A stretch of DNA of 64,000 nt from an uncultured Acidimicrobiales bacterium (GCA_964390555.1 CAYMJU010000086.1:7661-71660), one strand, 5' to 3'. Positions 6,958 to 23,607 are shown, counted from the first letter of the stretch. Notes: generated by a model from the sequence alone, not told the origin. Numbers and translations: made by a program.

Positions 6958-8203
<1,246 letters not shown>

Positions 8204-8207
<4 letters not shown>

Positions 8208-9775
8208 CCGGCGCCGCCGCCGAGGACGAGAGTCCGGGCAGCCTGGTCGAGATCGCGGTCCGCCGGGCGCGCCACGACCCGGACACACCGATGCTCGTCA
8301 CCGTCGACGGTCCGGAACCCGATCCCGTCGTCTTGCACACCTACGGTGAAGTCCTCGGCCGCGCCGCCGTCGTGGCCGCGGTGTTGGCCGCCGCCGGGGT
8401 GCGGGCCGGTGACCGGATCGGGTGCTACCTCGACAACACGCCGAGCTGGGTGGTGGCGTCGCTCGCGGCGTGGATGAACGGTGCTGCCGTGGCCGCCGCA
8501 GGCACGCTCATGCCGGCCCCCGAGGCCGCGGGACTGTTCTCCATGGCCGAGGCGACCGTCGTGGTCGCCCTCGACTCGGCACCCGATCTTCCGTCGACGT
8601 TCCGGGTGATCCGGATCGACTCGTCCGGGCGAGGCCCCGGCGATCTCTCCGCGGCAGCCGGGAGCGGCGACGTGGCGGTCACCCTTCCGGATCCCGAGGC
8701 GCTGGCCGTCGCCATCTTCACCTCGGGGACGACCGGTCGACCCAAAGGGGTCACCCACACCCACCGCGACCTCGTGGTGGCCGCGGCACGCGTCGCCGCG
8801 GGCTACTCGAAGAACAGCGGGTACCGCCCCGAGCCGGCGCCGGCCCGACTACCGCCCGGTGTGCTGTTCAACCCCTACGGGCACATGGCGGGGTACGGCC
8901 GTCTCGCTTTTCGCATGTGGACCGGGCGGGCCCTGGCGATCGTGCCCCGGTTCTCGCCCGAGGCGGCCCACACGTTGCTCCAGCGCTTCGACCTCGACAC
9001 CTTGCAGCTCAGCCCGACGATGATCCACATGCTGGCCACGTCGGAACTGCCGCTCGACCTCGGCACGGTGAAGTACGTGACGTCGGGGACCGCACCGCTG
9101 CCGGTCGCCACCCGGGACCTGTTCGAGCGCCGTTTCGGCGCGCCGGTCATGCAGGCCTACGGGATGAGCGAGATCGGCGCCGTGGCCCAGGAACGCTACG
9201 ACGATGTCGTGGCCGGCCGGCGGGGTCCGGGATCGGTCGGCCGCCTCGCCGCCGGTGTGGAGGTGCGCTTCCGGCACCTCGACGACGACCGGCCCGAGGG
9301 CGAGGGCGAGATCCTCGTGCGGACCGACGAGGCGTCCAAGGAGTTCATCGGCGGCGCTCCGGTGCCCGTCGACGACGACGGTTGGTTCGAGACCGGCGAC
9401 GTGGGACGCCTCGACGACGACATCTTGTACATCACCGGTCGCGTGCACGAGAAGATCATCGTCGGCGGGTTCAACGTCTACCCCGCCGAGGTGGAAGACG
9501 CCGCCCGCCGGTCGTCATCGGTGCTCGACGTCGTGGTGGTGGGGGTGCCCGACGAGCGTCTCGGCGAGTGTCCGGTGGCCGGCGTGGTGTGGGAGGGGGA
9601 GCCCGACGAGGCAGGGCTGATCGCCCAGCTCCGAGGCGAGCTGGCGGCCTACAAGGTGCCCCGCCGCACCTTCGCCCTCACGAATGTTCCGCTCACGGCT
9701 CGCGACAAGGTCGACCGCGCCGAGTCGATGCGACTGGCGCAGCGAGCCCTCGGCGTCGGCGACACCCAGGTTTGA
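8204..9775 (+). CDS. Acyl-CoA synthetase (AMP-dependent ligase)
   Basis: ATG 8204 overlaps the upstream TGA (ATGA). AMP-binding motif IFTSGTTGRPKGVTHTH. C-terminal GWFETGDVGRLD...YITGRVHEKI. Confidence 0.9.
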
Positions 9776-9788: not shown

Positions 9789-10445
9789 TCAGGATTGGCC
9801 GCGCGCGGCCTTGCGGTCCGGCCGGCCCGAACCCGTGCCGGCCGAGAGCGTGACGAGTAGATCGAATTCGTCGTGGATCACGTCGGCCAGGTCGAAGCTG
9901 GCCGGACCGGCGAGCCAGCGGTTCAGCGCGCGCCGGTAGGTGACGAGAGCGACGGCGGCGAAGAGCGAACACCCCTCGTCGGGCGAGACCAGACCGCGCC
10001 GGGCGGCCACCGCGTCGGCCAGGGTGCCGATGTTCTCGGCGATGTGGTCCTGGACCCGGCCCCGGAGCGTGGGCGACGTTGCGACCGCTTTGTCGTACAG
10101 GCGCAGCGATCTCCGCCCCGACGAGATGCCGGGGGCCGACGACACCAGCGCATCGCGCATGGCGTCGACGTCGCCTACCGAGGCCGGTTGGGCGAGATAC
10201 TGCTTCGTGAAGGACTGGATCCATCCGTACTCGCCGACGAACAGCACCGACTCCTTGGTGGGGAAGTACCGGAAGAAGGTCCGTGGCGAGACGCCCGCCC
10301 GCTCGGCGATCTCGTCGGTCGTGGTGGTGTCGTAGCCGAAGGTCGCGAACAGCTCGAGCGCCGCCTTCTGCAGGGCGCGCTCGGTCCGCAGCTTGTGCTG
10401 CTGGCGGCGCCCCTCGGGTTGGATCGTCGCGACATCATCGGCCAT
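9789..10445 (-). CDS. TetR family transcriptional regulator (TetR-1)
   Basis: HTH region ALELFATFGYDTTTTDEIAERAGVSPRTFFRYFPTKESVLF. The preferred start is ATG at 10445 (MADDVATIQ...). The ORF track begins 3 codons earlier on TTG 10454. Confidence 0.85.
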   Translation of the reverse strand: MADDVATIQPEGRRQQHKLRTERALQKAALELFATFGYDTTTTDEIAERAGVSPRTFFRYFPTKESVLFVGEYGWIQSFTKQYLAQPASVGDVDAMRDALVSSAPGISSGRRSLRLYDKAVATSPTLRGRVQDHIAENIGTLADAVAARRGLVSPDEGCSLFAAVALVTYRRALNRWLAGPASFDLADVIHDEFDLLVTLSAGTGSGRPDRKAARGQS

Positions 10446-10497
10446 CGCAAGCAACGATACCGGCCGACAGGGGTCCAGGGTGTGGGCCCGGATCCGC

Positions 10498-10527
10498 TTG
10501 ACAGCTTTCCGAGCCGCCTCCTATTCT
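10498..10527 (+). promoter_or_regulatory. Sigma-A-type promoter TTGACA-N18-TATTCT reading toward the ParB-like gene
   Basis: TTGACA at 10498-10503 and TATTCT (TAnnnT) at 10522-10527, with an 18-nt spacer. It lies in the TetR-1/ParB-like divergent region. Confidence 0.55.
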
Positions 10528-10542
10528 GACAGTCGAGTGTCA
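10527..10542. promoter_or_regulatory. Palindromic operator candidate TGACA-N6-TGTCA (copy 1)
   Basis: TGACAGTCGAGTGTCA has perfect 5-bp inverted arms. It overlaps the -10 and predicted TSS of the adjacent promoter. Related copies are at 21544-21559 and 23629-23644. Confidence 0.55.
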
Positions 10543-10570
10543 CTTGGGGGTTTGGTGTCGCAGGCCGAGG

Positions 10571-10654
10571 CTACGAGCGAAGCGAGCGCAGCCGAAGGAG
10601 CGCAGCTCCTCGGATGCAGATGGGGTCTGGTGGCGCAGCCCCCAGCGACAGATG
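10571..10654 (+). repeat. Double-hairpin interspersed repeat, copy A (shortened, no ATG)
   Basis: CTACGAGCGAAGCGAGCGCAGCCGAAGGAGCGCAGCTCCTCGGATGCAGATGGGGTCTGGTGGCGCAGCCCCCAGCGACAGATG aligns with the copies at 29498, 32364 and 36287. Confidence 0.75.
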
Positions 10655-11589
10655 CCGGCGTTCTCGACGAGCCGGGCCTCACCGTCGCGGTGCCCGTAGG
10701 CCTGTTGGACACGAGCCAGTCGTTCCGGGTCGGTGGATTGTGCGCCGAGCAGGTCGACCGCCTGGTCGCGCTCGGCGGAGCGTGGCCCCCGATCGTGATC
10801 GAACCGGGCCGACGGCGCGTCATCGACGGAGCGCACCGGGTCGCCGCGGCCCGCCGGCTCGGTTATAGCCATGTCCAGGCCGAGCTCTTCCACGGCTCGC
10901 CCGACGAGGCGTTCGTCGAGTTCGTTCGCCGCAACGTGACCCAGGGGCTCGTGCTCTCGTTGGCCGAGCGCAAGCACGCCGCGGTTCGCATACTGCGCAC
11001 GAGCCCGATCTGGTCGGACCGAAGGATCGCCGAGTTGTGCGTCGTGTCCCCGAAGACGGTGGCGCGGCTGCGGTCGGGGGACGGCTCGTGCCCAAGTGAG
11101 GACGCGGCCCACTCCGACGACGAGCGTCGTGTTGGCCGCGACCTCCGGGTTCGGCCGGTGCGACGAGGATCGGTGCGGGCGCTGGTGATCGAAGCGGTAC
11201 GGGCGCAGCCGAAGGCGTCGTTGCGCACCATCGCCGCGTCGGTCGGTGTGTCCCCGGAGACCGTGCGCCTGGTCCGGCGGAACCTTGCGCCCGGCGGGTC
11301 CTTGGTGGACGCCGGGTGCGACCTCGATCCTGCCCCGAGCGTCGACGACGGCTCGCCGACCGACACCGTGACCCCATGGCACTGCGATGCCGCGCTGGCC
11401 TCCAGCGAGCGCGGCGAGGAATTCACCCGGTGGTTCGAGAGCACCCATGTCGACGACACCGACCTGAGCTGGGTCGACGCGGTCCCCTTGGGCCGCGTCT
11501 ACGTGGTCGCCGAGGTCGCTCGCCAGCGGTCCGAGATCTGGCTGCGGATCGCCCGGGCCCTCGAGGCCCGTCCGGCGCGAGCGCGGTGA
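10630..11589 (+). CDS. ParB/sulfiredoxin-domain transcriptional regulator (StrR-like)
   Basis: ParB N-terminal domain pattern: AWPPIVIEPGRRRVIDGAHRVAAARRLGYSHVQAELF. Two HTH-like segments follow: SDRRIAELCVVSPKTVARLR and SLRTIAASVGVSPETVRLVRRNL. The start is uncertain. In-frame candidates are GTG 10630, GTG 10555 and TTG 10552. The ORF-track start at 10393 overlaps TetR-1 and was rejected. Confidence 0.65.
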   Translation: MAQPPATDAGVLDEPGLTVAVPVGLLDTSQSFRVGGLCAEQVDRLVALGGAWPPIVIEPGRRRVIDGAHRVAAARRLGYSHVQAELFHGSPDEAFVEFVRRNVTQGLVLSLAERKHAAVRILRTSPIWSDRRIAELCVVSPKTVARLRSGDGSCPSEDAAHSDDERRVGRDLRVRPVRRGSVRALVIEAVRAQPKASLRTIAASVGVSPETVRLVRRNLAPGGSLVDAGCDLDPAPSVDDGSPTDTVTPWHCDAALASSERGEEFTRWFESTHVDDTDLSWVDAVPLGRVYVVAEVARQRSEIWLRIARALEARPARAR

Positions 11590-11602
11590 CTCTGAGAGCG
11601 CG

Positions 11603-11646
11603 CGCCACTACGTGAACGTTCGACGTCTGATCGGTCCCGCTCGCCT
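11603..11646 (+). promoter_or_regulatory. Conserved 44-bp 5' module, copy X
   Basis: CGCCACTACGTGAACGTTCGACGTCTGATCGGTCCCGCTCGCCT matches 23564-23607 at 41/44 positions. It contains the palindromes GAACGTTC and GACGTC and lies 167 nt upstream of the dienelactone hydrolase start. Confidence 0.5.
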
Positions 11647-11812
11647 GCTAGCGCAGTCGAGAAATGCCACTGTCACATTGGAGAGCTCGTCTTTCGGCTC
11701 GCTCTCTGCGGTTGGTGTCGCCGTTTCCCCGGGCGGAGCGACTAGGAACGAGATCGTTGCGGGGACCGCAAACGCGCCATCCGGCGCGCAACGACGAGAA
11801 AAGGGATCAGGA

Positions 11813-12526
11813 ATGGCACAGACGGTGACAATCGACAGCGCTGGCGGCTCGATGGGGCTGTACGACGCCGAGCCCGACGGCGTGCCGCGGGGCGCGGTGA
11901 TCGTCATCCAGGAGGCGTTCGGTATAACGGACCACATCGAGGACGTCTGCCGGCGGCTCGCCGCCAGCGGGTACCGAGCCGTCGCTCCTCACCTGTTCCA
12001 CCGCAGTGGCGACGCAGTGATCGCCTACGACGACATGGCTTCGGTGATGCCACACATGGGCGCGCTGAGCGCCGACGGCTTGGCATCGGATCTCGCCGCG
12101 TCGATCGCCTACCTCGAAGGGGCCGGTTTCGGTGCCCAGCGGGTGGGGATCGTCGGATTCTGCATGGGCGGAAGCGTCGTTGTCCTCGCCGCCGCCACTC
12201 ACACCTTGGGCGCTGCGGTGACCTTCTACGGCGGTGGGGTGGCGACGGGAAGGTTCGGCTTGCCGCCACTCGTCGAGCTCGCCCCGACACTGAAGACCCC
12301 GTGGCTGGGCGTGTTCGGCGACAAGGACCAGGGCATACCCACCGACCAGGTGGAAACGCTGCGCGATGCGGCGGCCCAGGCCGCGGTGCCCACCGAGGTG
12401 GTCCGATACCCCGACGCCGAGCACGGCTTCCACTGCGATGCCCGCAGCTCCTACCACGAGGCGTCTTCGAAGGACGCGTGGAAGCGGACGCTCGCCTGGC
12501 TCGACGCTCACCTGGCCCCAGGCTGA
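11813..12526 (+). CDS. Dienelactone hydrolase family protein
   Basis: ATG 11813 follows AAAAGGGA. Motifs: VIVIQEAFGITDHIEDVCRRLAASGYRAVAPHLFHR and the nucleophile motif GFCMGG. The upstream in-frame extension from 11612 has low third-position GC and was rejected. Confidence 0.85.
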   Translation: MAQTVTIDSAGGSMGLYDAEPDGVPRGAVIVIQEAFGITDHIEDVCRRLAASGYRAVAPHLFHRSGDAVIAYDDMASVMPHMGALSADGLASDLAASIAYLEGAGFGAQRVGIVGFCMGGSVVVLAAATHTLGAAVTFYGGGVATGRFGLPPLVELAPTLKTPWLGVFGDKDQGIPTDQVETLRDAAAQAAVPTEVVRYPDAEHGFHCDARSSYHEASSKDAWKRTLAWLDAHLAPG

Positions 12527-12548
12527 TCCGACGCCGATCGCCGTGCCC

Positions 12549-13970
12549 ATGATCACCCACCACGAGACGGTCACCGAGGGCCGGATGGTCACCCGCGAGC
12601 TGGCGGAGTGGGTCGCCGGCGTGCGGATCGAGGACCTTCCCGACGACGTGGTCGCCGAAGCCGGCCGGGCTTTCGCGGACTTCCTCGGGGAATGCCTGTT
12701 CGTGGGGGCCACCCAACCCTGGGGACAGAGCATCGCCGCCTTCTGCGCCCACGACGGAGGGGGCCAGCCCGAAGCCACGATCATCGCGACCGGAAAGCGC
12801 ACGCTGGCGTCGCGGGCGGCGTTGGCGAATGGCACGATGGCCCTCGGGTTCGAGTACGCCGACTACGGAGCCGGCAGCCGGCCGTACCCGTTCGCGGTGA
12901 CCGCTCCGCTCGCCGTCGCCGAGTCGTGCCACGCGTCGGGTCGCGACCTGGCGCTGGCGATCGTCATCGGCTACGAGGTCATGGGCAGAGTGTTCCGTGC
13001 CACCTTCGAGCGCGGCAAGACGATCCCGTTCTACGTACCGTCGGTCTACGGAACCCTGGCCGGCGCGGCCGGGTGCGCCCGCCTGCTCGGGTTGTCGCCG
13101 GAGCACACGAACTACGCCCTCGGGCTGGCTGCGGCGTTCACGGGTGGCACGTTTCAGGGGCACGAGGAGGGGGCGTGGCAACGTTCGCTCAACGGGGGCA
13201 TGGCGGGCGAGCGGGCGGTGACGGCGGCCCGGCTCGCCCAAACGGGCTTCCGGGCGACCGAGCTCGGGCTCGAAGGCGTGCAGGGCTTCGCCAAGATGTA
13301 CACCCGGGGGCACCTCGACCCCGCCGCGCTGCTCGACGGGCTCGGCGAGGACTTCATCATCCTGAGTCGTTGGGTGAAGCGGTACCCGATGAACACCACC
13401 CTCCACGCGCCCGTGGAGGCGTTGCTGCAGATCATGAGCGAGCACGGTCTGCGCCACACCGACATCGACCGGATCGACGCCGCCTGGCAGCGCGTCGAGC
13501 CCTTCCTCGCCAAACACGAGGTGTCCACCGTCGTGAGCGCGCAGGCCAGCCTGCCCTTCGCCCTGGCGGTGGCCGCGGTGCGCGGCAAAGTCGGGGTCGA
13601 CGAGTTCACCGACGACACGGTGGCCGATCCGGTGGTCCAGGGCATGATCCCCCGGACCGTCGTGCACCAAGACGACGAGCTCTACACCCGCGTGACCAAC
13701 AGCATGCCCGGGCGCGTGACCGTGCGGACCTTCGACGGGCGCGAGCTCACCGCCGAGGTGCTCTATCCCAAGGGCAACCCGGCGAACCCGCTCACCGACG
13801 ACGAGTTCAAGGCCAAGTTCATGGACATGGCCGCCCGCGTGCTCGGTGAGGCGCAGGCCGAGGAACTGTACGGGCGGGCACTGCGTCTCGACTCCGAGCC
13901 CGACGTGGCCGACCTGGCCCCCCTGTTCAGCCCGGCCCCCATGCCCATTCCAAGTTGTCCGGCGGACTGA
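12549..13970 (+). CDS. MmgE/PrpD family protein (2-methylcitrate dehydratase-like) 1
   Basis: The 473-aa product has an N-terminus typical of the family, LAEWVAGVRIEDLPDDVVAEAGRAFADFLGECL. A paralog lies at 15823. The start is ATG 12549, with GTG 12543 as the alternative. Confidence 0.75.
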   Translation: MITHHETVTEGRMVTRELAEWVAGVRIEDLPDDVVAEAGRAFADFLGECLFVGATQPWGQSIAAFCAHDGGGQPEATIIATGKRTLASRAALANGTMALGFEYADYGAGSRPYPFAVTAPLAVAESCHASGRDLALAIVIGYEVMGRVFRATFERGKTIPFYVPSVYGTLAGAAGCARLLGLSPEHTNYALGLAAAFTGGTFQGHEEGAWQRSLNGGMAGERAVTAARLAQTGFRATELGLEGVQGFAKMYTRGHLDPAALLDGLGEDFIILSRWVKRYPMNTTLHAPVEALLQIMSEHGLRHTDIDRIDAAWQRVEPFLAKHEVSTVVSAQASLPFALAVAAVRGKVGVDEFTDDTVADPVVQGMIPRTVVHQDDELYTRVTNSMPGRVTVRTFDGRELTAEVLYPKGNPANPLTDDEFKAKFMDMAARVLGEAQAEELYGRALRLDSEPDVADLAPLFSPAPMPIPSCPAD

Positions 13971-13989
13971 GAGAGCTGCGAGGCACCCG

Positions 13990-15225
13990 ATGGGCATGAA
14001 CGCGATAGAGAAGATCCTGGCCAACCACTCGGATCAGACGACGGTGGTTCCCGGCGACGTCGTCATGGTGAAGGTCGACGTCACCGTGCAGTTCGACTCG
14101 TCGCGGCCCGACATCTTGCGCATCGCCAACCCCGACAAGCTGGTGCTGCTCCACGACCACGTGGTCCCGGCGCCAACCGTGCAGGCGGCGAACAACGCCA
14201 AGCGGATGCGCGAGTTCGTGGAGCGCTTCGGCATCGAGAACTACTTCCCGGTCGGCAAGCACGGGATCTCCCACGTGCTCGTGGCCGCGGAGGGCTTCGC
14301 CCTCCCCGGGCAGATCCTCGTGAACTCCGACTCCCACACCTGCTCGTCGGGGGCGATGAACTGCCTGGCCCGGGGTATGGGCCCGTCGGAGATGCTGTAC
14401 ATCATCTGCAAGGGCGAGACCTGGTATCTCGTCGGTCCCACCACCAAGGTGGTGCTCGAGGGCAAGCTCGCTCACCGGGTCTACCCGCGCGATGTCATCC
14501 ACCACCTGCCCGGGCAGTACGGCGACTTCGCTGGCCGCAACTTCGAGTGGCACGGCGACGGCCTGGCCGGGATCGACATCGACGGTCGGCTCACCATGGC
14601 GACGATCTCGGCCGAGGCGTCGGTGGAGTTCTCGCTGTTCCCCTACGACGACGTGCTCGCCGAGTACCTGGAGGGTCGGGCCCGGTGGCCGTTCGAACCG
14701 TCCCACCCCGACGCCGACGCGCATTACGACCAGGTCATCACGATCGACCTCTCCCAGCTCGAACCCCAGGTCGTGCTGCCGGGCAAGGTGGCATGGAACA
14801 CCAAGGGTGCCCGCGAGGTGGCCGCCGACAAGATCAAGGTCGACCAGGCCTTCATCGGGTCGTGCGCCAACGGTCGGCTGTCGGATTTCGCGGTGGCCGC
14901 CGAGATCGTGAAGGGCCGGCAGCTCGCGCCGGGCACGAGGATGATCGTCACGCCGGGCAGCCAGGACATCTTGAAAGAGGCGATCCGGGCCGGCTACGTC
15001 GAGACGCTGATGGACGCCGGTGCCGTGGTCACCAACTCGACCTGTGGCGCCTGCTTCGGTGGCCACATGGGCCTGCTGGCCGACGGCGAGGTGTGCATCA
15101 CCGCATCGACCAGGAATTTCCAGGGGCGGATGGGCAGCCCCAAGGCGAGCGTCTACATGGGTTCGCCGGCCACCGTCGCCGCGTCGGCGATCGCCGGCGT
15201 GATCATCGACCCGCGGGATCTCTAG
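13990..15225 (+). CDS. Aconitase-family dehydratase large subunit (LeuC/HacA-like)
   Basis: Cluster-ligand motifs NSDSHTCSSGA, FIGSCANGRLSDF and NSTCGACFGGHMG. At 411 aa it matches the short archaeal-type LeuC size. ATG 13990. Confidence 0.85.
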   Translation: MGMNAIEKILANHSDQTTVVPGDVVMVKVDVTVQFDSSRPDILRIANPDKLVLLHDHVVPAPTVQAANNAKRMREFVERFGIENYFPVGKHGISHVLVAAEGFALPGQILVNSDSHTCSSGAMNCLARGMGPSEMLYIICKGETWYLVGPTTKVVLEGKLAHRVYPRDVIHHLPGQYGDFAGRNFEWHGDGLAGIDIDGRLTMATISAEASVEFSLFPYDDVLAEYLEGRARWPFEPSHPDADAHYDQVITIDLSQLEPQVVLPGKVAWNTKGAREVAADKIKVDQAFIGSCANGRLSDFAVAAEIVKGRQLAPGTRMIVTPGSQDILKEAIRAGYVETLMDAGAVVTNSTCGACFGGHMGLLADGEVCITASTRNFQGRMGSPKASVYMGSPATVAASAIAGVIIDPRDL

Positions 15226-15288
15226 GTGCCACCCATGCCCGAGCGGGAAACGGGGGTTCAGCCCCCGAGAAGAACCAGGGAGCGCGCG

Positions 15289-15792
15289 ATGGCCACCACG
15301 TTCACGGGCAAGGTGTGGAAGTTCGGCGACGACATCAACACCGATCTCGTCATCCCGAACTTCGCCGTGCTCATGCCGATCGAGGAGCAGTTGCAGCACT
15401 GCTTCTCGGCCAACCGTCCGGGGTGGGTCGACGAGATCACCGTCGGCGACGTGATGGTCGTGGGTCGGAATTTCGGGGTCGGGTCGGCCCGCAACATCGG
15501 GGCGGTGTTCCACGGGCTCGGGATCGCGGGCGTGGTCGCCGAGTCGTTCAACGGGCTGGGCCTGCGCAACTGCATCAACTCGGCCCTTCCTTCGCTGCCG
15601 TGCCCCGGCGTGCTGGACATGTTCGACGAGGGCCACGTAGCCGAGGTCGACTGGACCATCGGCGAGGTACGCAACGTGACGACCGGGGCGACCGCCCGGG
15701 GTCTGCCGATCCCACCGCAGCTGCAGGCGATCATCCACGGCGGCGGGGTCGAGGGCGTTCTACGCACCCAGGGCTACCTCGCACCCCGATGA
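15289..15792 (+). CDS. Aconitase-family dehydratase small subunit (LeuD-like)
   Basis: ATG 15289 follows AGGGAG. Motifs: KFGDDINTDLVIP and GRNFGVGSARN (the LeuD G-x-NFG-x-GSSRE pattern). Confidence 0.85.
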   Translation: MATTFTGKVWKFGDDINTDLVIPNFAVLMPIEEQLQHCFSANRPGWVDEITVGDVMVVGRNFGVGSARNIGAVFHGLGIAGVVAESFNGLGLRNCINSALPSLPCPGVLDMFDEGHVAEVDWTIGEVRNVTTGATARGLPIPPQLQAIIHGGGVEGVLRTQGYLAPR

Positions 15793-15822
15793 GGCTTACG
15801 ACGATGAGCGAGGTGGCCACGC

Positions 15823-17196
15823 ATGGCTGATCAACCGGAACGGTCCGTGACCGAGCAGATGGCCACCTGGATCGTCGAGGTCGACGCGGCCGACCTCCCA
15901 CCGGTCGCTGCCGAACGCGTCGCCAACCTGGTCCTCGACTCGATCGGCAACCAGTTCGCCGGGATGTCGGTGTCGACCGGGCGGCTCCTGTCGGAGTGGG
16001 TTCGGGCCCAGCGGGCGGCGCCGGAGTGCACCGTCACCGCGTGCGATTTCAAGACCACGCCGTCGTTCGCCGCGCTCGTCAACGGTGCGGCGTCGCACGC
16101 CCTCGAGAACGACGACATCGCCACGTTCAGCAGCCATCCGAACAGCCCCCTCACCGCGGCCTCGCTGGCGCTCGGGGAGAAGCTCGGCGCGTCCGGCGCC
16201 GACGTCGTGTTGGCCTGGGTGATCGGCTGGGAGGTCACCGCCCAGACGATGAAGGTCTGTCTCGGCCCGCGCGGCAACGAGCTCATCAACCGGGGTTGGT
16301 TCAACCAGGGCTTCCAGGAGACGCTCGGCGTGGCCGCGCTCGCCTCCCGCCTCTTGCACCTCGACGTCGACCAGACGCGCATGGCGCTCGGGCACGCCGC
16401 GTCGGCCATGGCGGGGATGATGAAGAACCGAGGCACCGACACCAAGGGCTTCACGGCCGGCAGCGCGGCCATGCACGGCGTCATCGCCGGCGAGCTGGCG
16501 TCGTGCGGTTTCACGGCCAACCGCGACATCCTCGACGGCGAGCTCGGTGTGGCGAGGCTGCTCGGCCTCGACTCCGGCGACCCGCAGAAGATGCTCGACG
16601 GTCTCGGTTCCTGGGACCTCGCCACCCGGGGCTCGACGATCCGCCTCCACGCCTGCTGCGGGGCCTCCCACTGGAGCATGGACGCCATGCAGGACATCGT
16701 GCGCCGCTCGTCGCTGGTAGCCGCCGACATCGCGTCGATCGAGGTCGAGATCCCCGAGTTCCTCACCGACATGGTCCCGTTCCACGAGCCCCGTACCGGC
16801 TTGGAGGGGAAGTACAGCCTCGAGTACAGCCTGGCCACGGTGGCCCTCGACGGCCGGGCAGGAATCCACCAGTTCAGCGACGCCGCGGTGAGCCGGCCGG
16901 CGGCCCGGGACCTCGTGAGCCGGGTGCGCACCGTGCCCGTGAACGGGCCGCTCGAGAGCAAGGTGGTGGTCACGCTGCGCAACGGCGAACGCCTGGAGAG
17001 CAGCGCCAACCGGGCCCACGGTCATCCCATGGATCCGCTCAGCCCCGGCGAGATCGTCGCCAAGTTCGCCGAGTGCGCCGCTACGTCGGCCACCCCGGCC
17101 CAGCGCGACCAGGTGATCGATCTCTGCTCGCGGCTGGGGTCGCTCGACGACATCGGCGAGCTGACCCGGGTGATCGGAGCCGCCGGTGCCTCATGA
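15823..17196 (+). CDS. MmgE/PrpD family protein 2
   Basis: 457-aa paralog of 12549-13970. N-terminus: MATWIVEVDAADLPPVAAERVANLVLDSIGNQFAG. Confidence 0.75.
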   Translation: MADQPERSVTEQMATWIVEVDAADLPPVAAERVANLVLDSIGNQFAGMSVSTGRLLSEWVRAQRAAPECTVTACDFKTTPSFAALVNGAASHALENDDIATFSSHPNSPLTAASLALGEKLGASGADVVLAWVIGWEVTAQTMKVCLGPRGNELINRGWFNQGFQETLGVAALASRLLHLDVDQTRMALGHAASAMAGMMKNRGTDTKGFTAGSAAMHGVIAGELASCGFTANRDILDGELGVARLLGLDSGDPQKMLDGLGSWDLATRGSTIRLHACCGASHWSMDAMQDIVRRSSLVAADIASIEVEIPEFLTDMVPFHEPRTGLEGKYSLEYSLATVALDGRAGIHQFSDAAVSRPAARDLVSRVRTVPVNGPLESKVVVTLRNGERLESSANRAHGHPMDPLSPGEIVAKFAECAATSATPAQRDQVIDLCSRLGSLDDIGELTRVIGAAGAS

Positions 17197-18847
17197 CGTG
17201 GTGATCACCGGTGGGCGGATCGTCGACGGTACGGGGCGGGCCGCGTTCGCCGCCGACATCGCCATCGACGCCGGCCGCATCTCGGCGATCGGCGCGGTGA
17301 GCGGCGACGCCCGGCGCACGGTCGACGCCACGGATCACGTCGTGGCCCCGGGTTTCATCGACGCCCACACCCACTACGACGCCCAGCTCCTGTGGGACCC
17401 GACGGCCAACCCGTCGACCGCTCACGGCATCACCACGATCCTCACCGGGAACTGCGGCTACACCCTCGCCCCGGTCCGACCCGACGATCAGGACTACCTG
17501 ATGGGGTTGTTCGCGGCGGCCGAGGAGGTCCCCAAGGCGGCGTTGCAGCAGTTCGCCCCGCTGGGCTGGGAGACCTTCGGCGAGTACCTCGATGCCATGA
17601 GCGGGCGGCTCGGGCTCAACGTCGTGACCCAGGTCGGGCACAGCGCCGTGCGCCGGTACGTGATGGGTGACGCCGCCCTCGAACGACCCGCCACCGTCGA
17701 CGAGATCGCCGCCATGGTCCGCCTCGCCGAGGAGGCGATGGCCGCGGGCGCCGCCGGCGTGAGCAGCAGCCAGGCGTCGCACCAGCGAGGCGAGCGGGGC
17801 GAGCACATCCCGTCGTACTTCGCCGACGGCGCCGAGACCCGCGCTCTCGCCGAGGCGGTGCGGCGCCAGGGCAAGCGGTTGGTGTCGATCAACCCGGCCA
17901 GCAAGCGCAGTGGCATCACCGCGGAGGACCGGGCGCTGCTGGTCGCCTTGGCCGAGCTCTCCGGCGGCGTCGTGTCGTGGAACGACTTCGGCATGGGCAC
18001 GCCAGACGGCGACAGCATGCTCGAGTTCATGGAGGCCGAGCTCGAACGCGGCCGCGAGATCGTGGCCGTGGCGCGCTGCCAGCGCCCCGAGACGCGGTTC
18101 ACCCTGAAGAAGCTTTCGGCGGTGTTCGCCACATCCGAGGCGTGGGTCGACCTGTCGCGGTTGGACCCGGCCGACAAGCTCGCCGCTCTCGCCGACCCCA
18201 CCTGGCGGGCCAGCCTCGCCGCGTTCTGGTCTACCGCGGCGTTCATGGTGAACGCGGCGGTCGAGAGGGCCGGGAGCCCTGCCACGTCGGCGCTGGAAGG
18301 ACGCCTCCTCGTCGACATCGCGGCCGAGCGCGGCGTGAGCCCCGCCGAGGTCATGTTCGACGTGGCGATCGCCGACGGGCTCGAGACGTTCTTCCGCATC
18401 ACCGGACCGGTCGACATCGACGAGAGTCGCCTCGAACGTATTCTGAAGAGCCCGGCGACGCTGGTCGGGATCTCCGACGGCGGCGCCCACCTGCAGACCT
18501 TCGCCGGCGGCGACTACACCAGCTACTTCCTGGCCCACTGGGTCCGACGCAAGGGCGCTTTCACGCTCGAAGAAGGCGTTGCGGCGCTCACGTCGCGGGT
18601 CGCGGGGTTCCTCGGCCTCGCGGATCGCGGCACCATCGAGGTGGGCCGAGCTGCCGACGTGGTCGTGTTCGACCCCGTCACCATCGAGCCCCTGTCGTTG
18701 CAGACCCTCGACGACATCCCTGGAGGCGGCACCCGCATGACCAAGAACGCCCGCGGGATCCCGTGGGTCCTGGTGAACGGCGTGCCGGTTGTCGAGGCGG
18801 GCGTGGCCACGGCCGCCCGGCCCGGAGCCGTCCTCGGTCGCGGGTGA
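17186..18847 (+). CDS. Metal-dependent amidohydrolase (N-acyl-D-amino-acid deacylase/D-aminoacylase family)
   Basis: GTG 17186 overlaps the upstream gene end. N-terminus: VVITGGRIVDGTGRAAFAADIAIDAGRISAIG...APGFIDAHTHYDAQLLWDP (HxH metal motif). Confidence 0.85.
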   Translation: MPHDVVITGGRIVDGTGRAAFAADIAIDAGRISAIGAVSGDARRTVDATDHVVAPGFIDAHTHYDAQLLWDPTANPSTAHGITTILTGNCGYTLAPVRPDDQDYLMGLFAAAEEVPKAALQQFAPLGWETFGEYLDAMSGRLGLNVVTQVGHSAVRRYVMGDAALERPATVDEIAAMVRLAEEAMAAGAAGVSSSQASHQRGERGEHIPSYFADGAETRALAEAVRRQGKRLVSINPASKRSGITAEDRALLVALAELSGGVVSWNDFGMGTPDGDSMLEFMEAELERGREIVAVARCQRPETRFTLKKLSAVFATSEAWVDLSRLDPADKLAALADPTWRASLAAFWSTAAFMVNAAVERAGSPATSALEGRLLVDIAAERGVSPAEVMFDVAIADGLETFFRITGPVDIDESRLERILKSPATLVGISDGGAHLQTFAGGDYTSYFLAHWVRRKGAFTLEEGVAALTSRVAGFLGLADRGTIEVGRAADVVVFDPVTIEPLSLQTLDDIPGGGTRMTKNARGIPWVLVNGVPVVEAGVATAARPGAVLGRG

Positions 18848-18860
18848 GCCGAGTCGCCGG

Positions 18861-19181
18861 ATGGGGTTCACACGGGTGTGTCTCGAAGCCGACCTCGAAC
18901 CGGGCGACATGACGGCGTTCTTCGTCGACGACGTCGAGGTCCTCGTGGTGCGCGACAGACACGGCGTGCTCCACGCCATGGACGGCATCTGTCCCCACGA
19001 GGAATACCCCCTCGCCTACGGGCTGTTCGACGGTTCGGTGATCACGTGCGCGAACCACATGTGGTCCTTCGATGCCACCACCGGGCGGGGCATCAACCCA
19101 CCGAACTGTCACCTGTCGCGCTTCGCCATCAAGGTCGACGACGGCGAGGTGCTCGTCGACCCCGGCGCCGAGCCGGCGTGA
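18861..19181 (+). CDS. Rieske [2Fe-2S] ferredoxin
   Basis: CPHEEYPL...(17 aa)...CANHMW gives CxH-N17-CxxH. The product is 106 aa from ATG 18861. Confidence 0.85.
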   Translation: MGFTRVCLEADLEPGDMTAFFVDDVEVLVVRDRHGVLHAMDGICPHEEYPLAYGLFDGSVITCANHMWSFDATTGRGINPPNCHLSRFAIKVDDGEVLVDPGAEPA

Positions 19182-19184
19182 CAG

Positions 19185-20033
19185 TCACCGAGTGAACGGT
19201 GCCAGCAACTCCTCGGGAACCGTGTTGCGCCAACCGTGCCCGGGCCAGTTGAACCAGCCCGACGACGCGTACGTGCCGCCGTCGGGGTGCAGCGTGGTGC
19301 CGGTCACGTAGGCCGACAGCGCCGAGGCCAGGAACACCACGCACCCGGCCACGTCGGCCACGTCGCCAGGCCGGCCCATCGGGATCTGCACGCGGGTGCC
19401 GAGCTCGGACTTCGGCGGCTGGCCGGGGGCGGCCATCCGGCGCATGGCCGGCGTGGGGGTGTAGTCGGGGGCGACGTTGTTGACACGGATGTGATCGGGC
19501 CCGAGCTCGACGGCCAGGGTGCGCCCGAACTGCTCGACGGCGGCCTTGGCCGCCGAATAGACGGCGAAGCCGGGAGCGGCGCGGTGGCACTCGATCGTGG
19601 TCAGGTTGACGATGCTCCCGCCGCGGCCGCCGGCTTGCATCCGGGGCACGGCCAGGGAACAGGCGTGGATCACGTGCATGAGGTTCATGCGGATGACGGC
19701 GTCCCACCCCTTCGGCTTCGTGTCGACGAAGTCGGCGAGGAACGTCCCGCCCGGCACGTTCACCAGGGTGTCGACGCGCCCCCACTGCTCGTCGACCTCG
19801 ACGAAGAGCGCTTCGAGCTGGTCGTGAACGCGCACGTCGCCATGCCTGACGATCGCCTCCGGACCCAGGGCGGCGGCGGTGTCACCGACCGCGTGGGGGT
19901 CGATGTCGATCACCGCGACGCGCACGCCGTTGGCGGCCAGATCACGGGTGATCGCGCCGCCCAGACCGCCGGCGCCGCCGGTGATCACCGCGACCGTGCC
20001 GGCAAGCCCGCCGCGCTCCTCGAACCAGGTCAC
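19185..20033 (-). CDS. Short-chain dehydrogenase/reductase
   Basis: GTG 20033 opens VTWFEERGGLAGTVAVITGGAGGLGGAI. Catalytic motif YSAAKAA. The start lies 7 nt after the upstream HD-gene stop. The ORF-track start at 20186 was trimmed. Confidence 0.8.
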   Translation of the reverse strand: MTWFEERGGLAGTVAVITGGAGGLGGAITRDLAANGVRVAVIDIDPHAVGDTAAALGPEAIVRHGDVRVHDQLEALFVEVDEQWGRVDTLVNVPGGTFLADFVDTKPKGWDAVIRMNLMHVIHACSLAVPRMQAGGRGGSIVNLTTIECHRAAPGFAVYSAAKAAVEQFGRTLAVELGPDHIRVNNVAPDYTPTPAMRRMAAPGQPPKSELGTRVQIPMGRPGDVADVAGCVVFLASALSAYVTGTTLHPDGGTYASSGWFNWPGHGWRNTVPEELLAPFTR

Positions 20034-20040
20034 CGGTTCG

Positions 20041-20622
20041 CTACTTGGACGCGACCGACGTGACGAGGCGGGCACGTACCAACGGCTCGAAGTGCTCGAG
20101 CGGCTCGCTCTTGTAGTCGGCGTCGAAGGCGACCTGGTCGTACTTGGCGCAGAACTCCTCGGTGTACTCGTAGTACGGCGAGTCACGATGGGCGTCTCGG
20201 GCGTTGCGGTCGAGGCCGATGTGGTGCCAGAAGTAATACCCCTGGAAGATGCCGTGGTGCTCCACGAGCCAGTGGTTCTCGCGCGACACGAAGGGCCGCA
20301 CGATCGACGCCGCCACCGCCGGGTGGTTGAACGGGGCGAGGGTGTCGCCGATGTCGTGCAACAGGGCGCACAGGACGTACTCCTCGTCGCGCCCGTCGCG
20401 CTCGGCCCGGGTGGCCGTCTGCAGGCTGTGCTCGAGACGATCGACGGGGAACCCGCCGTAGTCGTGGCTCAGCTCGCGCAGGAGGCCGATCACCCGGTCC
20501 GGTACAAAGGTCTGGGCCACGTCGAGTTGAGGTGTGATGATCGCCCAGTCCTCGGCCGTCGACTCCTCGAATGACGAGAAGCGAGCCCGCGGTGGATCGT
20601 TGGTGGCTGTCGTTGCCTTCAC
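20041..20622 (-). CDS. HD-domain protein, PhnZ/MIOX-like (COG4341-type predicted diiron oxygenase/phosphohydrolase)
   Basis: VDRLEHSLQTATRAERDGRDEEYVLCALLHDIGD matches the H...HD pattern of PhnZ-type HD proteins. Further His residues occur in NHPAV and WLVEHHGIFQGYYFWHH. Confidence 0.7.
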   Translation of the reverse strand: MKATTATNDPPRARFSSFEESTAEDWAIITPQLDVAQTFVPDRVIGLLRELSHDYGGFPVDRLEHSLQTATRAERDGRDEEYVLCALLHDIGDTLAPFNHPAVAASIVRPFVSRENHWLVEHHGIFQGYYFWHHIGLDRNARDAHRDSPYYEYTEEFCAKYDQVAFDADYKSEPLEHFEPLVRARLVTSVASK

Positions 20623-20664
20623 AGAGCTAATCGTACGGGTCGTAGCACCCGCGGTCCATGGACG

Positions 20665-21513
20665 TCAGCCAGTGGGCCGGTCGGCGGCGACACTTCGTAT
20701 GCGATCGACACCGGCCTGGCCGCGAACGGTCCCCGCAACCATGCCGCCGTCGACGGGGAGCACCGTGCCGGTGACGTAGCTCGACCGGTCGCTCGCGAAC
20801 CACACAGCGGCTTCGGCGATGTCGCCGGGCGTGCCCTGCCGTTTGATGGCCTGCCGGGACATGATGTGCTCCCGGATGCGCGCCATCAGCTCGGCCCTCT
20901 CGTCGTCGGCCAGGCCGGCCGCCATCACCGATCCGAGGATCGGCGTCTCGATGTTGCCGGGCGCCAGGCAGTTGACCCTCACACCGAGCTCGCCGACGTC
21001 GAGGGCGGCGGATTTCGTGAACATGATCACCGACGCCTTCGACGTGTGGTACGTCCACAGCCCCGGCGCCGGATTGATGCCACCGATCGACGAGATGTTG
21101 ATGATCGATCCACCGCCGTTGGTCGCCATGTGGCGGGCGGCCTCGCGGGTCCCGGCCATGACACCGAGCAGGTTGACCCCCATCACCCGATGGAAGTCGC
21201 CGAAGTCGTCGTCGAGCAGCCGGGGGTGGCGTGCGCCCGAGATGCCGGCGTTGTTGAACATCACGTGAAGTCCGCCGAAGGTCTCGACGGCGCAGTCGAC
21301 GAGCGCGCGCACCTGCTCCTGATCGGCCACGTCGGTGTACCGGAAGCGGGCCCGGGAACCGAAGGTCGCGGCGAGAGCCTCGCCCTGATCCCGGTCGACG
21401 TCCGCGATGACCACCCGGGCGCCCTCGGCCACGAACCGCTCGACGGTGCCCCGACCGATCCCGGATGCTCCTCCGGTGACGATCGCGACCTTCCCCACCA
21501 GTTCTTCTGCCAT
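20665..21513 (-). CDS. Short-chain dehydrogenase/reductase
   Basis: ATG 21513 opens MAEELVGKVAIVTGGASGIGRGT. Motifs NNAGI and YHTSKAS. The 579-aa ORF-track version was trimmed to 282 aa. Confidence 0.85.
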   Translation of the reverse strand: MAEELVGKVAIVTGGASGIGRGTVERFVAEGARVVIADVDRDQGEALAATFGSRARFRYTDVADQEQVRALVDCAVETFGGLHVMFNNAGISGARHPRLLDDDFGDFHRVMGVNLLGVMAGTREAARHMATNGGGSIINISSIGGINPAPGLWTYHTSKASVIMFTKSAALDVGELGVRVNCLAPGNIETPILGSVMAAGLADDERAELMARIREHIMSRQAIKRQGTPGDIAEAAVWFASDRSSYVTGTVLPVDGGMVAGTVRGQAGVDRIRSVAADRPTG

Positions 21514-21559: not shown

Positions 21560-21633
21560 CATTGACGAGATCGGTGCGCTCGGCCATCGCCCACCGACCG
21601 TCGACCACCGACGCCGCAGAAGGGGGAGACGAC

Positions 21634-22842
21634 GTGGAGACCGCCAGCACGGTGATCACCTACCCGATCGTGCCCGAACGTGGGCTCGAGGTCGACCCGC
21701 TGTACCGCGAGCTGCAGGCCAAAGCACCCATCCGGGTCCAGCTGCCCCACGGTGAACCGTGCTGGCTCGCGACCCGCTACGACGACGTGCGCACGGTGTA
21801 CGGCGACCGGCGGTTCGGTCGGGCCGAGGGCCTCCGGCGTGACCCGCCCGGCACGTTCCCCGGCGAGCTCATGCGGATCCCCAGCCTGCTGGTGAACATG
21901 GATCCGCCCGACCACACGCGAGTGCGCCGCCTCACGTCGGGCGCGTTCTCGCCGGCTCGCATCGGTGGGCTGCAGGCGTGGGTCCAGTCGGTGGTCGACG
22001 ACCTCCTCGACCAGATGGCTGCGCTCGGGCCAGGCGCCGACTTCGTTCCCGCGTTCGCCGAGCAGCTGCCGGTGAAGGTGCTGGTGGGGATCCTCGGCGT
22101 GCCCGAGACCGACTCGCGGGACTTCCGGACCTGGGTGATGAACATGTCCGACCACGGGCTCGACCTCGCGACACGAGATCAGGCCCGCGTCGAGTTCCAC
22201 GCCTACCTGGCCGAGCGGATCGCCGAGCGGCGCGAGCGGCGAACCGACGACTTGTTGAGCTCCCTCGTCGAGGCGAGAGACGACGACGACCGCTTGAGCG
22301 AGGACGAGCTGTTCGGCCTGTGCATCGCCCTGTGGGGCGGGGGCTTCAAGACGACGTTGATGCAGCTCGGCACCACCGTGTACACGCTCATGACCCACCG
22401 CCACCTCTGGGAGGAGCTCCTCGGCGACGCCGCCCTGATGCCTGCGGGGCTCGAGGAGCTGTGGCGGTGGATTCCGAGCTTCCGCTACGCCCGGCCGTTC
22501 GTGCGGTGGGCCTCAGAAGACGTCGAGCTGGCGGGCGGGTTCGTCGTCCCGGCGGGCGACGCGGTGCTGCCCGAGCACGCGGTGGCCAACCGCGACGAGT
22601 CGGTGTTCTCCCACGGATGGGACCTCGACTTCCACCGCGTCGATCCCCGCCCTCACCTCTCGTTCGCGTTCGGCGCCCACCACTGCATGGGCGCCCACCT
22701 GGCGACACTGCAGGTCCGTCTGGCGGTCGAGTCTCTGCTGGGACGGTTCCCGTCCCTCGAGCTGGCCATACCCGAGGCCGACGTGCCGTGGTCGACGGCG
22801 GCGATCATGCGCTCGGTCGAGTCTCTGCCTCTGCGGTGGTGA
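21634..22842 (+). CDS. Cytochrome P450
   Basis: Heme signature FAFGAHHCMGAHLATLQ. GTG 21634 lies 6 nt after GGGGGAG and gives 402 aa. The alternative is TTG 21562, immediately after the -10-like TAGAGT. Confidence 0.85.
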   Translation: METASTVITYPIVPERGLEVDPLYRELQAKAPIRVQLPHGEPCWLATRYDDVRTVYGDRRFGRAEGLRRDPPGTFPGELMRIPSLLVNMDPPDHTRVRRLTSGAFSPARIGGLQAWVQSVVDDLLDQMAALGPGADFVPAFAEQLPVKVLVGILGVPETDSRDFRTWVMNMSDHGLDLATRDQARVEFHAYLAERIAERRERRTDDLLSSLVEARDDDDRLSEDELFGLCIALWGGGFKTTLMQLGTTVYTLMTHRHLWEELLGDAALMPAGLEELWRWIPSFRYARPFVRWASEDVELAGGFVVPAGDAVLPEHAVANRDESVFSHGWDLDFHRVDPRPHLSFAFGAHHCMGAHLATLQVRLAVESLLGRFPSLELAIPEADVPWSTAAIMRSVESLPLRW

Positions 22843-22866: not shown

Positions 22867-23493
22867 CTAGGAACCCGCCATGATGTCGGCGAGGCGAACG
22901 AACTCGTCGGCGATCGTTTCGCTGAGATCGGCTTCGTCGGGGCCGGCGAGCCACCGGTCGAGGCCCCGATTGTGGGTGAGCACGCCGATGTCGGCCAGGA
23001 GCCGGCAGTTCTCGTCGGGATGTTGGCGACCTCGTCGGGTCGCGATGGCGCTGGCGACGACGGCTAGGTCGTTGAGCCGGTGCTCGTACTCTCGGCCACG
23101 CAGCGTCGGCGAGGACGCCACCGCCCGCTCGTAGAGCAGGAGGTTGGCGCGCCGTTCGGTCAGCGTGGAGCCCACCTGCCGGAAGGTCGTCGCCAGGGCG
23201 TCGAGGTCCGAGAGGTGCGCGGGTTGCCCGAGGAACACGGCGACGAAGGACTGCATCCAGGTGCGCCGGTCTGCGAACAGGACCGACTCCTTGGTGGCGA
23301 AGTACCGGAAGAACGTGCGGCCCGACACCTCGGCGCGCTCGGCGATCTCTTCGGTGGTGGTCGACTCGTAGCCCTGGGTGGCGAACAGGTGCAGAGCGGC
23401 CTCGCGGAGGGCGACCCCGGTTCTGGCCTTGCGCCGCTCGCGCCGGGTCGGAGCGGTGTCGACAGCCGTCGACGAGAGGCTCTGACCGTTCAC
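22867..23493 (-). CDS. TetR family transcriptional regulator (TetR-2, paralog of TetR-1)
   Basis: ALHLFATQGYESTTTEEIAERAEVSGRTFFRYFATKESVLF, and both TetR proteins share SPTLRGR. The preferred start is GTG 23493 (209 aa). The Arg-rich ORF-track extension to 23634 was rejected. Confidence 0.8.
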   Translation of the reverse strand: MNGQSLSSTAVDTAPTRRERRKARTGVALREAALHLFATQGYESTTTEEIAERAEVSGRTFFRYFATKESVLFADRRTWMQSFVAVFLGQPAHLSDLDALATTFRQVGSTLTERRANLLLYERAVASSPTLRGREYEHRLNDLAVVASAIATRRGRQHPDENCRLLADIGVLTHNRGLDRWLAGPDEADLSETIADEFVRLADIMAGS

Positions 23494-23563
23494 GGAGATG
23501 GTGCCGATGTCGAGAATGTAGCTCGACGGGGCGCGACCACCGTGGCCCGGACGCGAGAACCCA

Positions 23564-23607
23564 CGCCAGTAGGTGAACGTTCGACGTCTGATCGGTCTCG
23601 CTCGCCT
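23564..23607 (+). promoter_or_regulatory. Conserved 44-bp 5' module, copy Y
   Basis: CGCCAGTAGGTGAACGTTCGACGTCTGATCGGTCTCGCTCGCCT matches 11603-11646 at 41/44 positions. It lies 37 nt upstream of the amidohydrolase ATG. Confidence 0.5.

Follow-up and report, generated by a model that had tools for sequence, protein, structure and literature searches.

The subject of this study is a stretch of 64,000 nt from an uncultured Acidimicrobiales bacterium (GCA_964390555.1, CAYMJU010000086.1:7661-71660), here called the window, and within it a group of seven genes that combines two divergent MmgE/PrpD proteins with a two-subunit hydro-lyase of the aconitase family. Positions are counted from the first letter of the window and gene coordinates were refined by start-codon inspection. 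The genome assembly comprises 4.56 Mb in 222 contigs, is 96% complete and has a GC content of 70%. A freshwater sediment metagenome contains the window DNA almost completely and may be its source sample; no RNA run was among the listed sequencing runs that carry this DNA. Seven co-directional open reading frames (ORFs) occupy positions 11813-19181 of the plus strand, with a GC3 codon bias of 0.80-0.93 per frame:

11813-12526, plus strand: dienelactone-hydrolase-family alpha/beta hydrolase (DLH), accessory; Pfam DLH 9.9e-51, 172.8 bits
12549-13970, plus strand: divergent MmgE/PrpD protein (PrpD1), core; Pfam MmgE_PrpD_N 1.2e-48, MmgE_PrpD_C 4.2e-33
13990-15225, plus strand: LeuC-like [4Fe-4S] hydro-lyase large subunit, core; Pfam Aconitase 3e-78
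15289-15792 (alternative GTG start at 15226), plus strand: LeuD-like small subunit, core; Pfam Aconitase_C 8e-05, NCBIfam LEUD_arch 3e-31
15823-17196, plus strand: divergent MmgE/PrpD protein (PrpD2), core; Pfam MmgE_PrpD_N 7.2e-48, MmgE_PrpD_C 5e-28
17186-18847, plus strand: D-aminoacylase-like metallohydrolase, core; Pfam Amidohydro_3 1e-32
18861-19181, plus strand: Rieske-type [2Fe-2S] ferredoxin of 106 aa, accessory; Pfam Rieske 6.4e-18

The seven genes and family names given in a first-pass annotation of the window were borne out by position, GC3 bias and the Pfam and NCBIfam matches. The same is true of its description of co-directional genes with short gaps or overlaps: the intergenic gaps are, in gene order, 22, 19, 63, 30, -11 and 13 nt, the negative value being the overlap of the amidohydrolase start with the end of PrpD2. 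The ATG of the DLH gene is preceded by an AGGA-type ribosome-binding site, and downstream of the Rieske gene there are a short-chain dehydrogenase/reductase (SDR) gene and an HD-domain gene, both convergent on the minus strand. No terminator-like sites were found in 10300-20800. Since the genes are co-directional, with gaps of at most 63 nt, one 11-nt overlap and no internal terminator-like site, they look like one operon-like transcription unit.

A search with the LeuC-like protein against one genome per GTDB species gave 79 loci, which were then analyzed by tblastn with all window proteins and by ORF clustering. This carried out the search for PrpD-LeuC-LeuD-PrpD synteny that the first-pass annotation had proposed, and added the amidohydrolase as a fifth gene: the order PrpD1-LeuC-LeuD-PrpD2-amidohydrolase is kept, fully or nearly, in about 30 loci with LeuC proteins 74-89% identical to that of the window, and is lost in every locus where LeuC is at most 56% identical. 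We refer to these five genes as the core or cassette. The earlier view of a seven-gene cluster is therefore correct for the window, where all seven genes are present and adjacent, and not for other genomes, where only five are conserved and the DLH and Rieske genes are variable. Only about 6 of 30 loci have a DLH ortholog next to the cassette or within 3-6 kb of it, five others having a distant DLH paralog on the other strand, and a Rieske ortholog adjoins the cassette only in locus L006.

Carriers of the cassette are Acidimicrobiia-type metagenome-assembled genomes (MAGs) from soil, peat and sediment, the cultured strains Mycobacterium sp. BK086 and Novosphingobium sp. CF614, and two further sphingomonad assemblies. 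In a quick maximum-likelihood tree of LeuC proteins (SH-aLRT support, midpoint root, no bootstrap) the cassette proteins form one clade with SH-aLRT support of 100 and a long stem. The proteins from Sphingomonadaceae and Mycobacterium fall inside the Acidimicrobiia, the sphingomonads next to an Acidimicrobiales MAG and Mycobacterium next to an Acidimicrobiaceae group. A PrpD1 ortholog was not found in 41 other genomes of the family to which the window belongs or in 300 genomes sampled from its class, which makes the cassette rare and patchy; apparently it is also mobile between phyla. A collection of 72,556 plasmid records contained no PrpD1 homolog at E <=1e-40, and LeuC homologs of at most 50% identity only. 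One of the loci examined (L083, NC_016113.1 1771968-1791068) is on the S. cattleyicolor plasmid pSCAT. There an Amidohydro_2 gene precedes a LeuC-LeuD pair of 50% identity, and a distant PrpD-like gene (27% identity to PrpD1) comes after it; the locus, unannotated in the record, seems to be a more loosely related version of the cassette on a megaplasmid of Streptomyces type. The cassette was also found on a MAG contig named Bifidobacterium breve (L008, CAMDCC010000004.1). Its LeuC is 86% identical and groups with Acidimicrobiia, and the name is probably a binning or naming error.

The LeuC-like protein passes two subfamily models, PRK00402 (429 bits, cut-off 385) and hacA_fam (400 bits, cut-off 385.7), and fails the leuC and LEU2 equivalogs (TIGR00170, 178 bits vs 560; LEU2, 385 vs 611). 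The LeuD-like protein fails the leud equivalog (95 bits vs a cut-off of 246) and scores 108.3 vs a cut-off of 108.95 in the LeuD/DmdB subfamily model. With large and small subunit genes adjacent, the pair falls into the subfamily of heterodimeric hydro-lyases of the archaeal isopropylmalate isomerase (IPMI), homoaconitase (HACN) and DmdAB type. The closest PDB entry to the LeuC-like protein is the Methanocaldococcus jannaschii isopropylmalate (IPM)/citramalate isomerase 4NQY (1.2e-82), which outscores the homoaconitase 4KP2 (4.7e-73); for the LeuD-like protein the isomerase subunit 3VBA (3.5e-29) likewise outscores 2PKP (1.7e-15). Alignment to 4NQY recovers all three Fe-S cysteine ligands, as had been claimed for the cluster Cys motifs, together with the DSHT and NRNFxGR motifs.

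The substrate-recognition loop of the LeuD-like protein reads NFAVLM, and the pattern P[NG][FY]A[VIL][LMFY] is present in 32 of 32 cassette copies; in non-cassette LeuD relatives the same position is variable, often with Arg. The loop aligns with RYLVYT of IPMI rather than with PYLRTT of homoaconitase. This five-residue region sets the substrate preference of IPMI and homoaconitase (PMC7308503, citing Jeyakanthan et al. 2010). A hydrophobic loop conserved in all copies argues for a hydrophobic substituent on the predicted substrate. The small-subunit substrate-binding motif GSSRE (PMC7308503) reads GS[AG]Rx in all cassette copies, with the first Ser and the Arg kept and the second Ser and the Glu lost. 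The M. jannaschii MJ0499/MJ1277 isomerase (4NQY, 3VBA) is the best structural and sequence relative of both subunits and has the three Cys ligands and a hydrophobic recognition loop in common with them. The cassette pair differs from it by a loop of F-A-V-L instead of Y-L-V-Y, by GSARN instead of GSSRE, by scores below the LEU2 and leud cut-offs, by the lack of LeuA or LeuB, and by the presence of a separate LeuC of bacterial type in its genome.

Protein families are shared with leucine biosynthesis and with the methylcitrate cycle, and one could read the cassette as a second leucine/isoleucine isomerase or as a split methylcitrate cycle. We see next to no chance of this, and such a housekeeping role is in effect refuted by the rest of the genome. 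Three aconitase-family genes are present, and the true LeuC, with 746 bits to TIGR00170 (cut-off 560), is encoded on another contig (C107), so the cassette is not leucine biosynthesis. PrpD1 and PrpD2 are the sole MmgE/PrpD genes in the genome; they score 21 and 41 bits to PrpD_hiGCgrampos (cut-off 950), and no PrpB above cut-off was found in the genome. As neither a PrpD nor a PrpB equivalog was found, the cassette is not a methylcitrate cycle. The wide margins by which the leuC, leuD and PrpD equivalog cut-offs are failed, the failure to find PrpD1 in the related genomes searched and the distribution across phyla also speak against housekeeping. Both pathways had been set aside in the first-pass annotation, correctly on this evidence, and neither of the two outcomes it named as fatal to its view was observed: the pair is not a sole LeuCD copy clustering with bona fide LeuCD, since a bona fide LeuC is encoded elsewhere in the genome, and no characterised pathway in the literature searched matches the cluster. 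A bile-salt side-chain cluster of Caenibius and Chol11 was considered and rejected because its gene set is different. The enzymes belong to known superfamilies, and the literature searched holds no description of this gene combination.

The methylcitrate pair of PrpD with AcnA or AcnB is nevertheless a useful comparison. There too an MmgE/PrpD enzyme is combined with an Fe-S hydro-lyase of the aconitase superfamily, one enzyme dehydrating and the other rehydrating, which converts a tertiary into a secondary alcohol. The cassette differs in having neither PrpC nor PrpB, in a two-subunit archaeal-type LeuCD as Fe-S partner in place of AcnA/AcnB, and in its two PrpD paralogs and fixed amidohydrolase.

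The two MmgE/PrpD proteins are of the family named earlier, yet closer to cis-aconitate decarboxylase (CAD)/IRG1 and iminodisuccinate (IDS) epimerase than to 2-methylcitrate dehydratase, which was not among the structure matches of either. The closest solved structures to PrpD1 are the Bacillus subtilis IRG1-like protein 7BRA (2.6e-27) and IDS-epimerase, and those to PrpD2 are human CAD (5e-39) and IDS-epimerase (1.5e-36); both paralogs match IDS-epimerase at 1e-20 to 1e-36. An ESM Atlas search with PrpD1 returned generic MmgE/PrpD clusters only. Both proteins lack part of the CAD catalytic set, which we take to be His103, His159, Lys207, Lys272 and His277:

Human CAD, positions 103/159/207/272/277: His, His, Lys, Lys, His
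PrpD1 at these positions: Tyr, Tyr, Arg, Lys, Asn (conserved in 24 orthologs)
PrpD2 at these positions: His, Phe, Lys, Arg, Cys (conserved in 23 orthologs)

Compared with CAD, PrpD1 thus has Tyr, Tyr and Arg for His103, His159 and Lys207, and PrpD2 has Phe for His159, Arg for Lys272 and Cys for His277. As the altered residue sets are conserved, both proteins are predicted to be under selection and neither is predicted to be a cis-aconitate decarboxylase. Because PrpD1 and PrpD2 always co-occur, they were modelled as a heterodimer. The complex scored 0.77 vs 0.00 for the best control, a mark reached by 58 of 80 solved complexes and 2 of 110 mismatched pairs, with controls that cannot tell a PrpD1-PrpD2 heterodimer from homodimers. 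Contact agreement was at least 91%, partner pLDDT (predicted local distance difference test) at least 89, and the interface near-symmetric. The model supports a putative PrpD1-PrpD2 heterodimer.

The amidohydrolase is closest in structure to D-aminoacylase (1V4Y/1M7J, ~6e-46), and its nearest solved relatives include N-acyl-D-glutamate deacylase. The metal ligands of D-aminoacylase are, as we assume, HxH, Cys and two His, with a catalytic Asp in addition. HxH (H61, H63), Cys90 (in GNCG) and Asp431 (in SDG) are invariant and H199 is conserved among cassette orthologs; the motif of the last, third metal His was not recognised, the position where, on this assumed mapping, we would expect it reading S[IL]NP. 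The motifs GFCMGG, FGDKD and AEHGF of the DLH protein fit a Cys-Asp-His triad, in agreement with its predicted family.

The Rieske protein has the ligand motifs CPH...CANH (CxH, CxxH). In two other loci (L021 and L024) a different Rieske ferredoxin gene is located between two Amidohydro_2 genes beside the cassette. Amidohydro_2 proteins beside the cassette in other genomes match PtmU3 (~1e-34) and DitZ (1e-24 to 1e-31) better than decarboxylases (1e-12). PtmU3 and DitZ, the latter a hydroxylase of dehydroabietic acid, belong to the diiron "amidohydrolase-related dinuclear oxygenases" (AROs), a group for which genomic association with Rieske ferredoxins has yielded thousands of candidates (PMC13154177). 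The resemblance to ARO systems (AibH1H2/AibG, SfbO, PtmU3, DitZ) is found in other genomes, where PtmU3/DitZ-like genes flank the cassette and a small Rieske ferredoxin is linked to them. The first-pass annotation had noted that the Rieske protein has no partner oxygenase in the cluster. This is true of the window; AROs are nonetheless a likely partner class of the ferredoxin, with genes that flank the cassette in other genomes.

The genes around the operon provide additional context:

2736-9775, plus strand: upstream CoA block with a tandem-fused family III CoA-transferase, SDR, enoyl-CoA hydratase, acyl-CoA dehydrogenase and acyl-CoA synthetase (Pfam, NCBIfam)
9789-10454, minus strand: TetR-family regulator (Pfam TetR_N 1.3e-16), with 52-65% orthologs upstream of the cassette in about 11 loci
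10630-11589: ParB/HTH-like regulator directly upstream of the operon, with 48-55% orthologs at the same position in L009, L012 and L018
11594-11646, plus strand: leader module of 53 nt (direct repeat D3) in the 223-nt gap between the ParB-like gene and DLH
21562-22842, plus strand: cytochrome P450 (Pfam p450), with 58-60% orthologs beside the cassette in L017, L019-L021 and L024
23555-29441, plus strand: second operon with an amidohydrolase paralog, aldo-keto reductase, two TauD-family dioxygenases, cupin and SDR (Pfam)

Two types of neighbourhood were recognised among the loci. In the first, to which the window belongs, a family III CoA-transferase, enoyl-CoA hydratase, acyl-CoA dehydrogenase, acyl-CoA synthetase and divergent TetR gene are upstream; the block of enoyl-CoA hydratase, acyl-CoA dehydrogenase, acyl-CoA synthetase and CoA-transferase also precedes the cassette in L006, L008, L010-L012, L027, L048 and L061. 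In the second, two Amidohydro_2 genes surround a fused CoA-transferase upstream. Downstream of the core, both types often have a DUF35-Ltp thiolase fusion together with another Amidohydro_2 gene and an SDR. The CoA-transferases belong to the dicarboxylate type, with succinate-glutarate and succinyl-CoA:mesaconate transferases as their nearest relatives; that of the window is a tandem fusion of ~770 aa (2736-5039). Similar fusions of 840-870 aa are directly upstream of the cassette in BK086 (L022:2597-5203) and CF614 (L025:972-3494), and a closer ortholog of these (61% identity) is found just outside the window (G000:C86:2025-4511). Synthase or lyase genes were not found among the annotated neighbours in the loci. 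The earlier statement that synthase, lyase and dehydrogenase partners are missing is accordingly accurate inside the cluster, while dehydrogenases, CoA-transferases and a thiolase-like enzyme are encoded next to the operon. Benzylsuccinate (Bbs-type) beta-oxidation was tried as an explanation of the neighbours and rejected, as the thiolase scores 82 bits to BbsB vs a cut-off of 750 and matches Ltp thiolases better; it serves as an analogy only.

The leader at 11594-11646 is repeated with 89% identity at 23555-23607, ahead of the second amidohydrolase operon, and both leader-bearing operons contain a D-aminoacylase-like paralog. In L006 the Rieske gene has the amidohydrolase paralog and two TauD-family genes immediately downstream. 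This arrangement and the shared leader indicate that the two operons probably serve one pathway. The TetR genes at 9789-10454 and 22867-23634 share 74% nucleotide identity over 201 nt. The HD-domain protein at 20041-20622 on the minus strand has a weak N-terminal match to a PhnZ-type phosphonate oxygenase (2.6e-10, 45 residues), and an 82% ortholog adjoins the cassette amidohydrolase in L013. Paralogs are greatly expanded across the genome, with about 45 Amidohydro_2 loci of the ARO/decarboxylase fold, about 18 Amidohydro_3 loci of D-aminoacylase-like type and many family III CoA-transferases and SDRs; the Amidohydro_2 and Amidohydro_3 paralog numbers are typical of a broad degrader.

Hydrolysis followed by dehydration and rehydration of a substituted di- or tricarboxylate, as proposed in the first-pass annotation, is still the most sensible reading of these enzyme families. 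We tentatively propose, with a little less than an even chance of being right, that the cassette is a catabolic module which dehydrates and rehydrates an acid of the malate or maleate type bearing a hydrophobic substituent. Hydro-lyases of the aconitase family classically act on 2-substituted malates or maleates, and a substituted succinate backbone is common to methylcitrate, cis-aconitate and iminodisuccinate, the known substrates of the PrpD family. These substrate types, the dicarboxylate CoA-transferases and the LeuD loop together point to a C4-dicarboxylate with a hydrophobic substituent; most likely this would be a bulky acid with a malate, maleate or succinate type of backbone and a substituent that is probably branched.

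In the proposed route, the amidohydrolase and, where present, the DLH enzyme would release or unmask the acid, which could initially be present as a lactone, anhydride, amide or imide. The PrpD proteins, possibly as a heterodimer, would then perform a dehydration or epimerisation impossible for the Fe-S enzyme, and the LeuCD-like [4Fe-4S] hydro-lyase would re-add water to the double bond, so that a tertiary hydroxyl is moved to an oxidisable secondary position. This division of work would be analogous to the methylcitrate cycle, where PrpD dehydrates and aconitase rehydrates. Further conversion of the product could fall to the CoA-transferase, acyl-CoA dehydrogenase, hydratase, SDR and DUF35-thiolase enzymes encoded nearby, and the Rieske ferredoxin would most likely supply electrons to diiron oxygenases. 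In steroid catabolism, enzymes of the Ltp/DUF35 kind cleave hindered hydroxyacyl-CoAs. Because PtmU3/DitZ-like oxygenases, Ltp/DUF35 enzymes, P450s and TauD enzymes are encoded nearby, the neighbourhood suggests that the ultimate substrates may be acids of terpenoid-like or alicyclic structure with many tertiary and quaternary carbons. A more specific version is a hitherto undescribed "alkyl-malate shunt" that would overcome the obstacle of tertiary carbons in the catabolism of terpenoids (resin-acid-type or related alicyclic acids): a heterodimeric PrpD-family enzyme and a dedicated Fe-S hydratase would turn tertiary hydroxy-dicarboxylates, formed downstream of ARO diiron oxygenases and CoA-dependent ring opening, into secondary alcohols open to oxidation, and the cassette would have spread horizontally among Acidimicrobiia, Mycobacterium and sphingomonads; we consider this version in its entirety rather unlikely.

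Several observations weigh against the proposed module. The cassette itself contains no dehydrogenase or lyase, and the LeuD-like protein of the window has GSARN in place of GSSRE. The model does not account for an amide substrate, such as the D-aminoacylase-like enzyme would suggest. Given the incomplete CAD residue sets, PrpD1 and PrpD2 may be dehydratases, decarboxylases or epimerases. Beyond the limits of its controls, the heterodimer score may reflect likeness to two-chain solved entries of the family (CAD, IDS-epimerase), and these are presumably homodimers. The CoA and oxygenase link comes solely from recurrent proximity, and flanks differ between genomes. No ARO gene is present in the window, the nearest orthologs (81% and 62% identity) being on contig C174. 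Rieske ferredoxins are, moreover, largely absent near "high-potential" AROs of the PtmU3/DitZ type and occur mainly with the low-potential branch (PMC13154177).

In a different order of events the amidohydrolase would act first, as an imidase or half-amidase. Its substrate would be a cyclic imide or amide with an alkyl substituent, such as an alkylmaleimide or an aspartate-type compound substituted on nitrogen; the LeuCD-like enzyme would hydrate the resulting dialkylmaleate as DmdAB does dimethylmaleate, and the PrpD proteins would be epimerases or isomerases like IDS-epimerase. Such a route would account for an amidohydrolase that is a strictly conserved fifth gene, keeps the HxH, Cys and Asp of D-aminoacylase and has a deacylase of N-acyl-D-glutamate among its nearest solved relatives; it would also suit the IDS-epimerase matches of both PrpD paralogs and a small subunit that scores just below the LeuD/DmdB cut-off. 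We still find it improbable, as the recurrent neighbours are CoA-dependent enzymes and oxygenases rather than ammonia-handling, amidase-signature or transporter genes, none of which recur, and as the third metal His of D-aminoacylase was not found on the assumed mapping. Another route would scavenge an isopropyl-bearing malate, released by ring cleavage of abietane resin acids or p-menthanes, and isomerise it into leucine catabolism. The compound 2-isopropylmalate is said to have been reported as a dehydroabietate breakdown product, which the literature search did not confirm; nothing relevant on dehydroabietic acid together with isopropylmalate was found there. The resemblance of the pair to IPM/citramalate isomerase, its IPMI-like hydrophobic loop and neighbours related to the dehydroabietate hydroxylase DitZ are in agreement with such scavenging, and resin-acid catabolism beyond the known intermediates is still to be worked out (PMC13063091). 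Yet no LeuB-like dehydrogenase is linked, housekeeping LeuCD could suffice, two PrpD proteins and an amidohydrolase would be unnecessary, and no ring-cleavage dioxygenase was seen among the neighbours annotated within ~8 kb (not every neighbour was scanned). A link to the abietane dit cluster was not found either: the dit-cluster literature searched makes no mention of cassette-type genes, and the plasmid collection, in which the presence of a dit-bearing replicon was unchecked, held no PrpD1 homolog at the threshold given above and no LeuC homolog above 60% identity. We judge this route distinctly unlikely.

A biosynthetic module for a secondary metabolite resembling a dialkylmaleic anhydride or an alkylcitrate would put a similar enzyme set to the opposite use. 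The tautomycin and tautomycetin genes (ttm/ttn K-S) reportedly encode an esterase or alpha/beta hydrolase, a PrpD-like protein, a LeuCD-like pair, a family III CoA-transferase and a dioxygenase, which would make them the closest enzyme set that we know of. That system is said to be biosynthetic, with a condensing or lyase-type enzyme next to a polyketide synthase (PKS); the cassette has a catabolic context, and no condensing or lyase-type enzyme was seen there. A ParB/StrR-like regulator upstream of the operon would fit biosynthesis. Against it, no citrate-synthase-like, citryl-CoA-lyase-like, PKS or nonribosomal peptide synthetase (NRPS) gene is present among the annotated neighbours, the flanks are typical catabolic genes under TetR control, and the numerous Amidohydro_2 and Amidohydro_3 paralogs are expected of a broad degrader. 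A biosynthetic role therefore seems very improbable to us.

If the cassette is indeed a catabolic module for a substituted malate- or maleate-type acid, it would be a missing piece in the breakdown of branched, terpenoid-like acids by soil and sediment bacteria. It would also provide new reactions for the MmgE/PrpD family, possibly with its first heteromeric form, and for archaeal-type LeuCD hydro-lyases, both of them families with few characterised members. For orphan Rieske ferredoxins, the AROs beside the cassette give a concrete candidate partner class. Direct tests are within reach, as two of the carriers, Novosphingobium sp. CF614 and Mycobacterium sp. BK086, are in culture.

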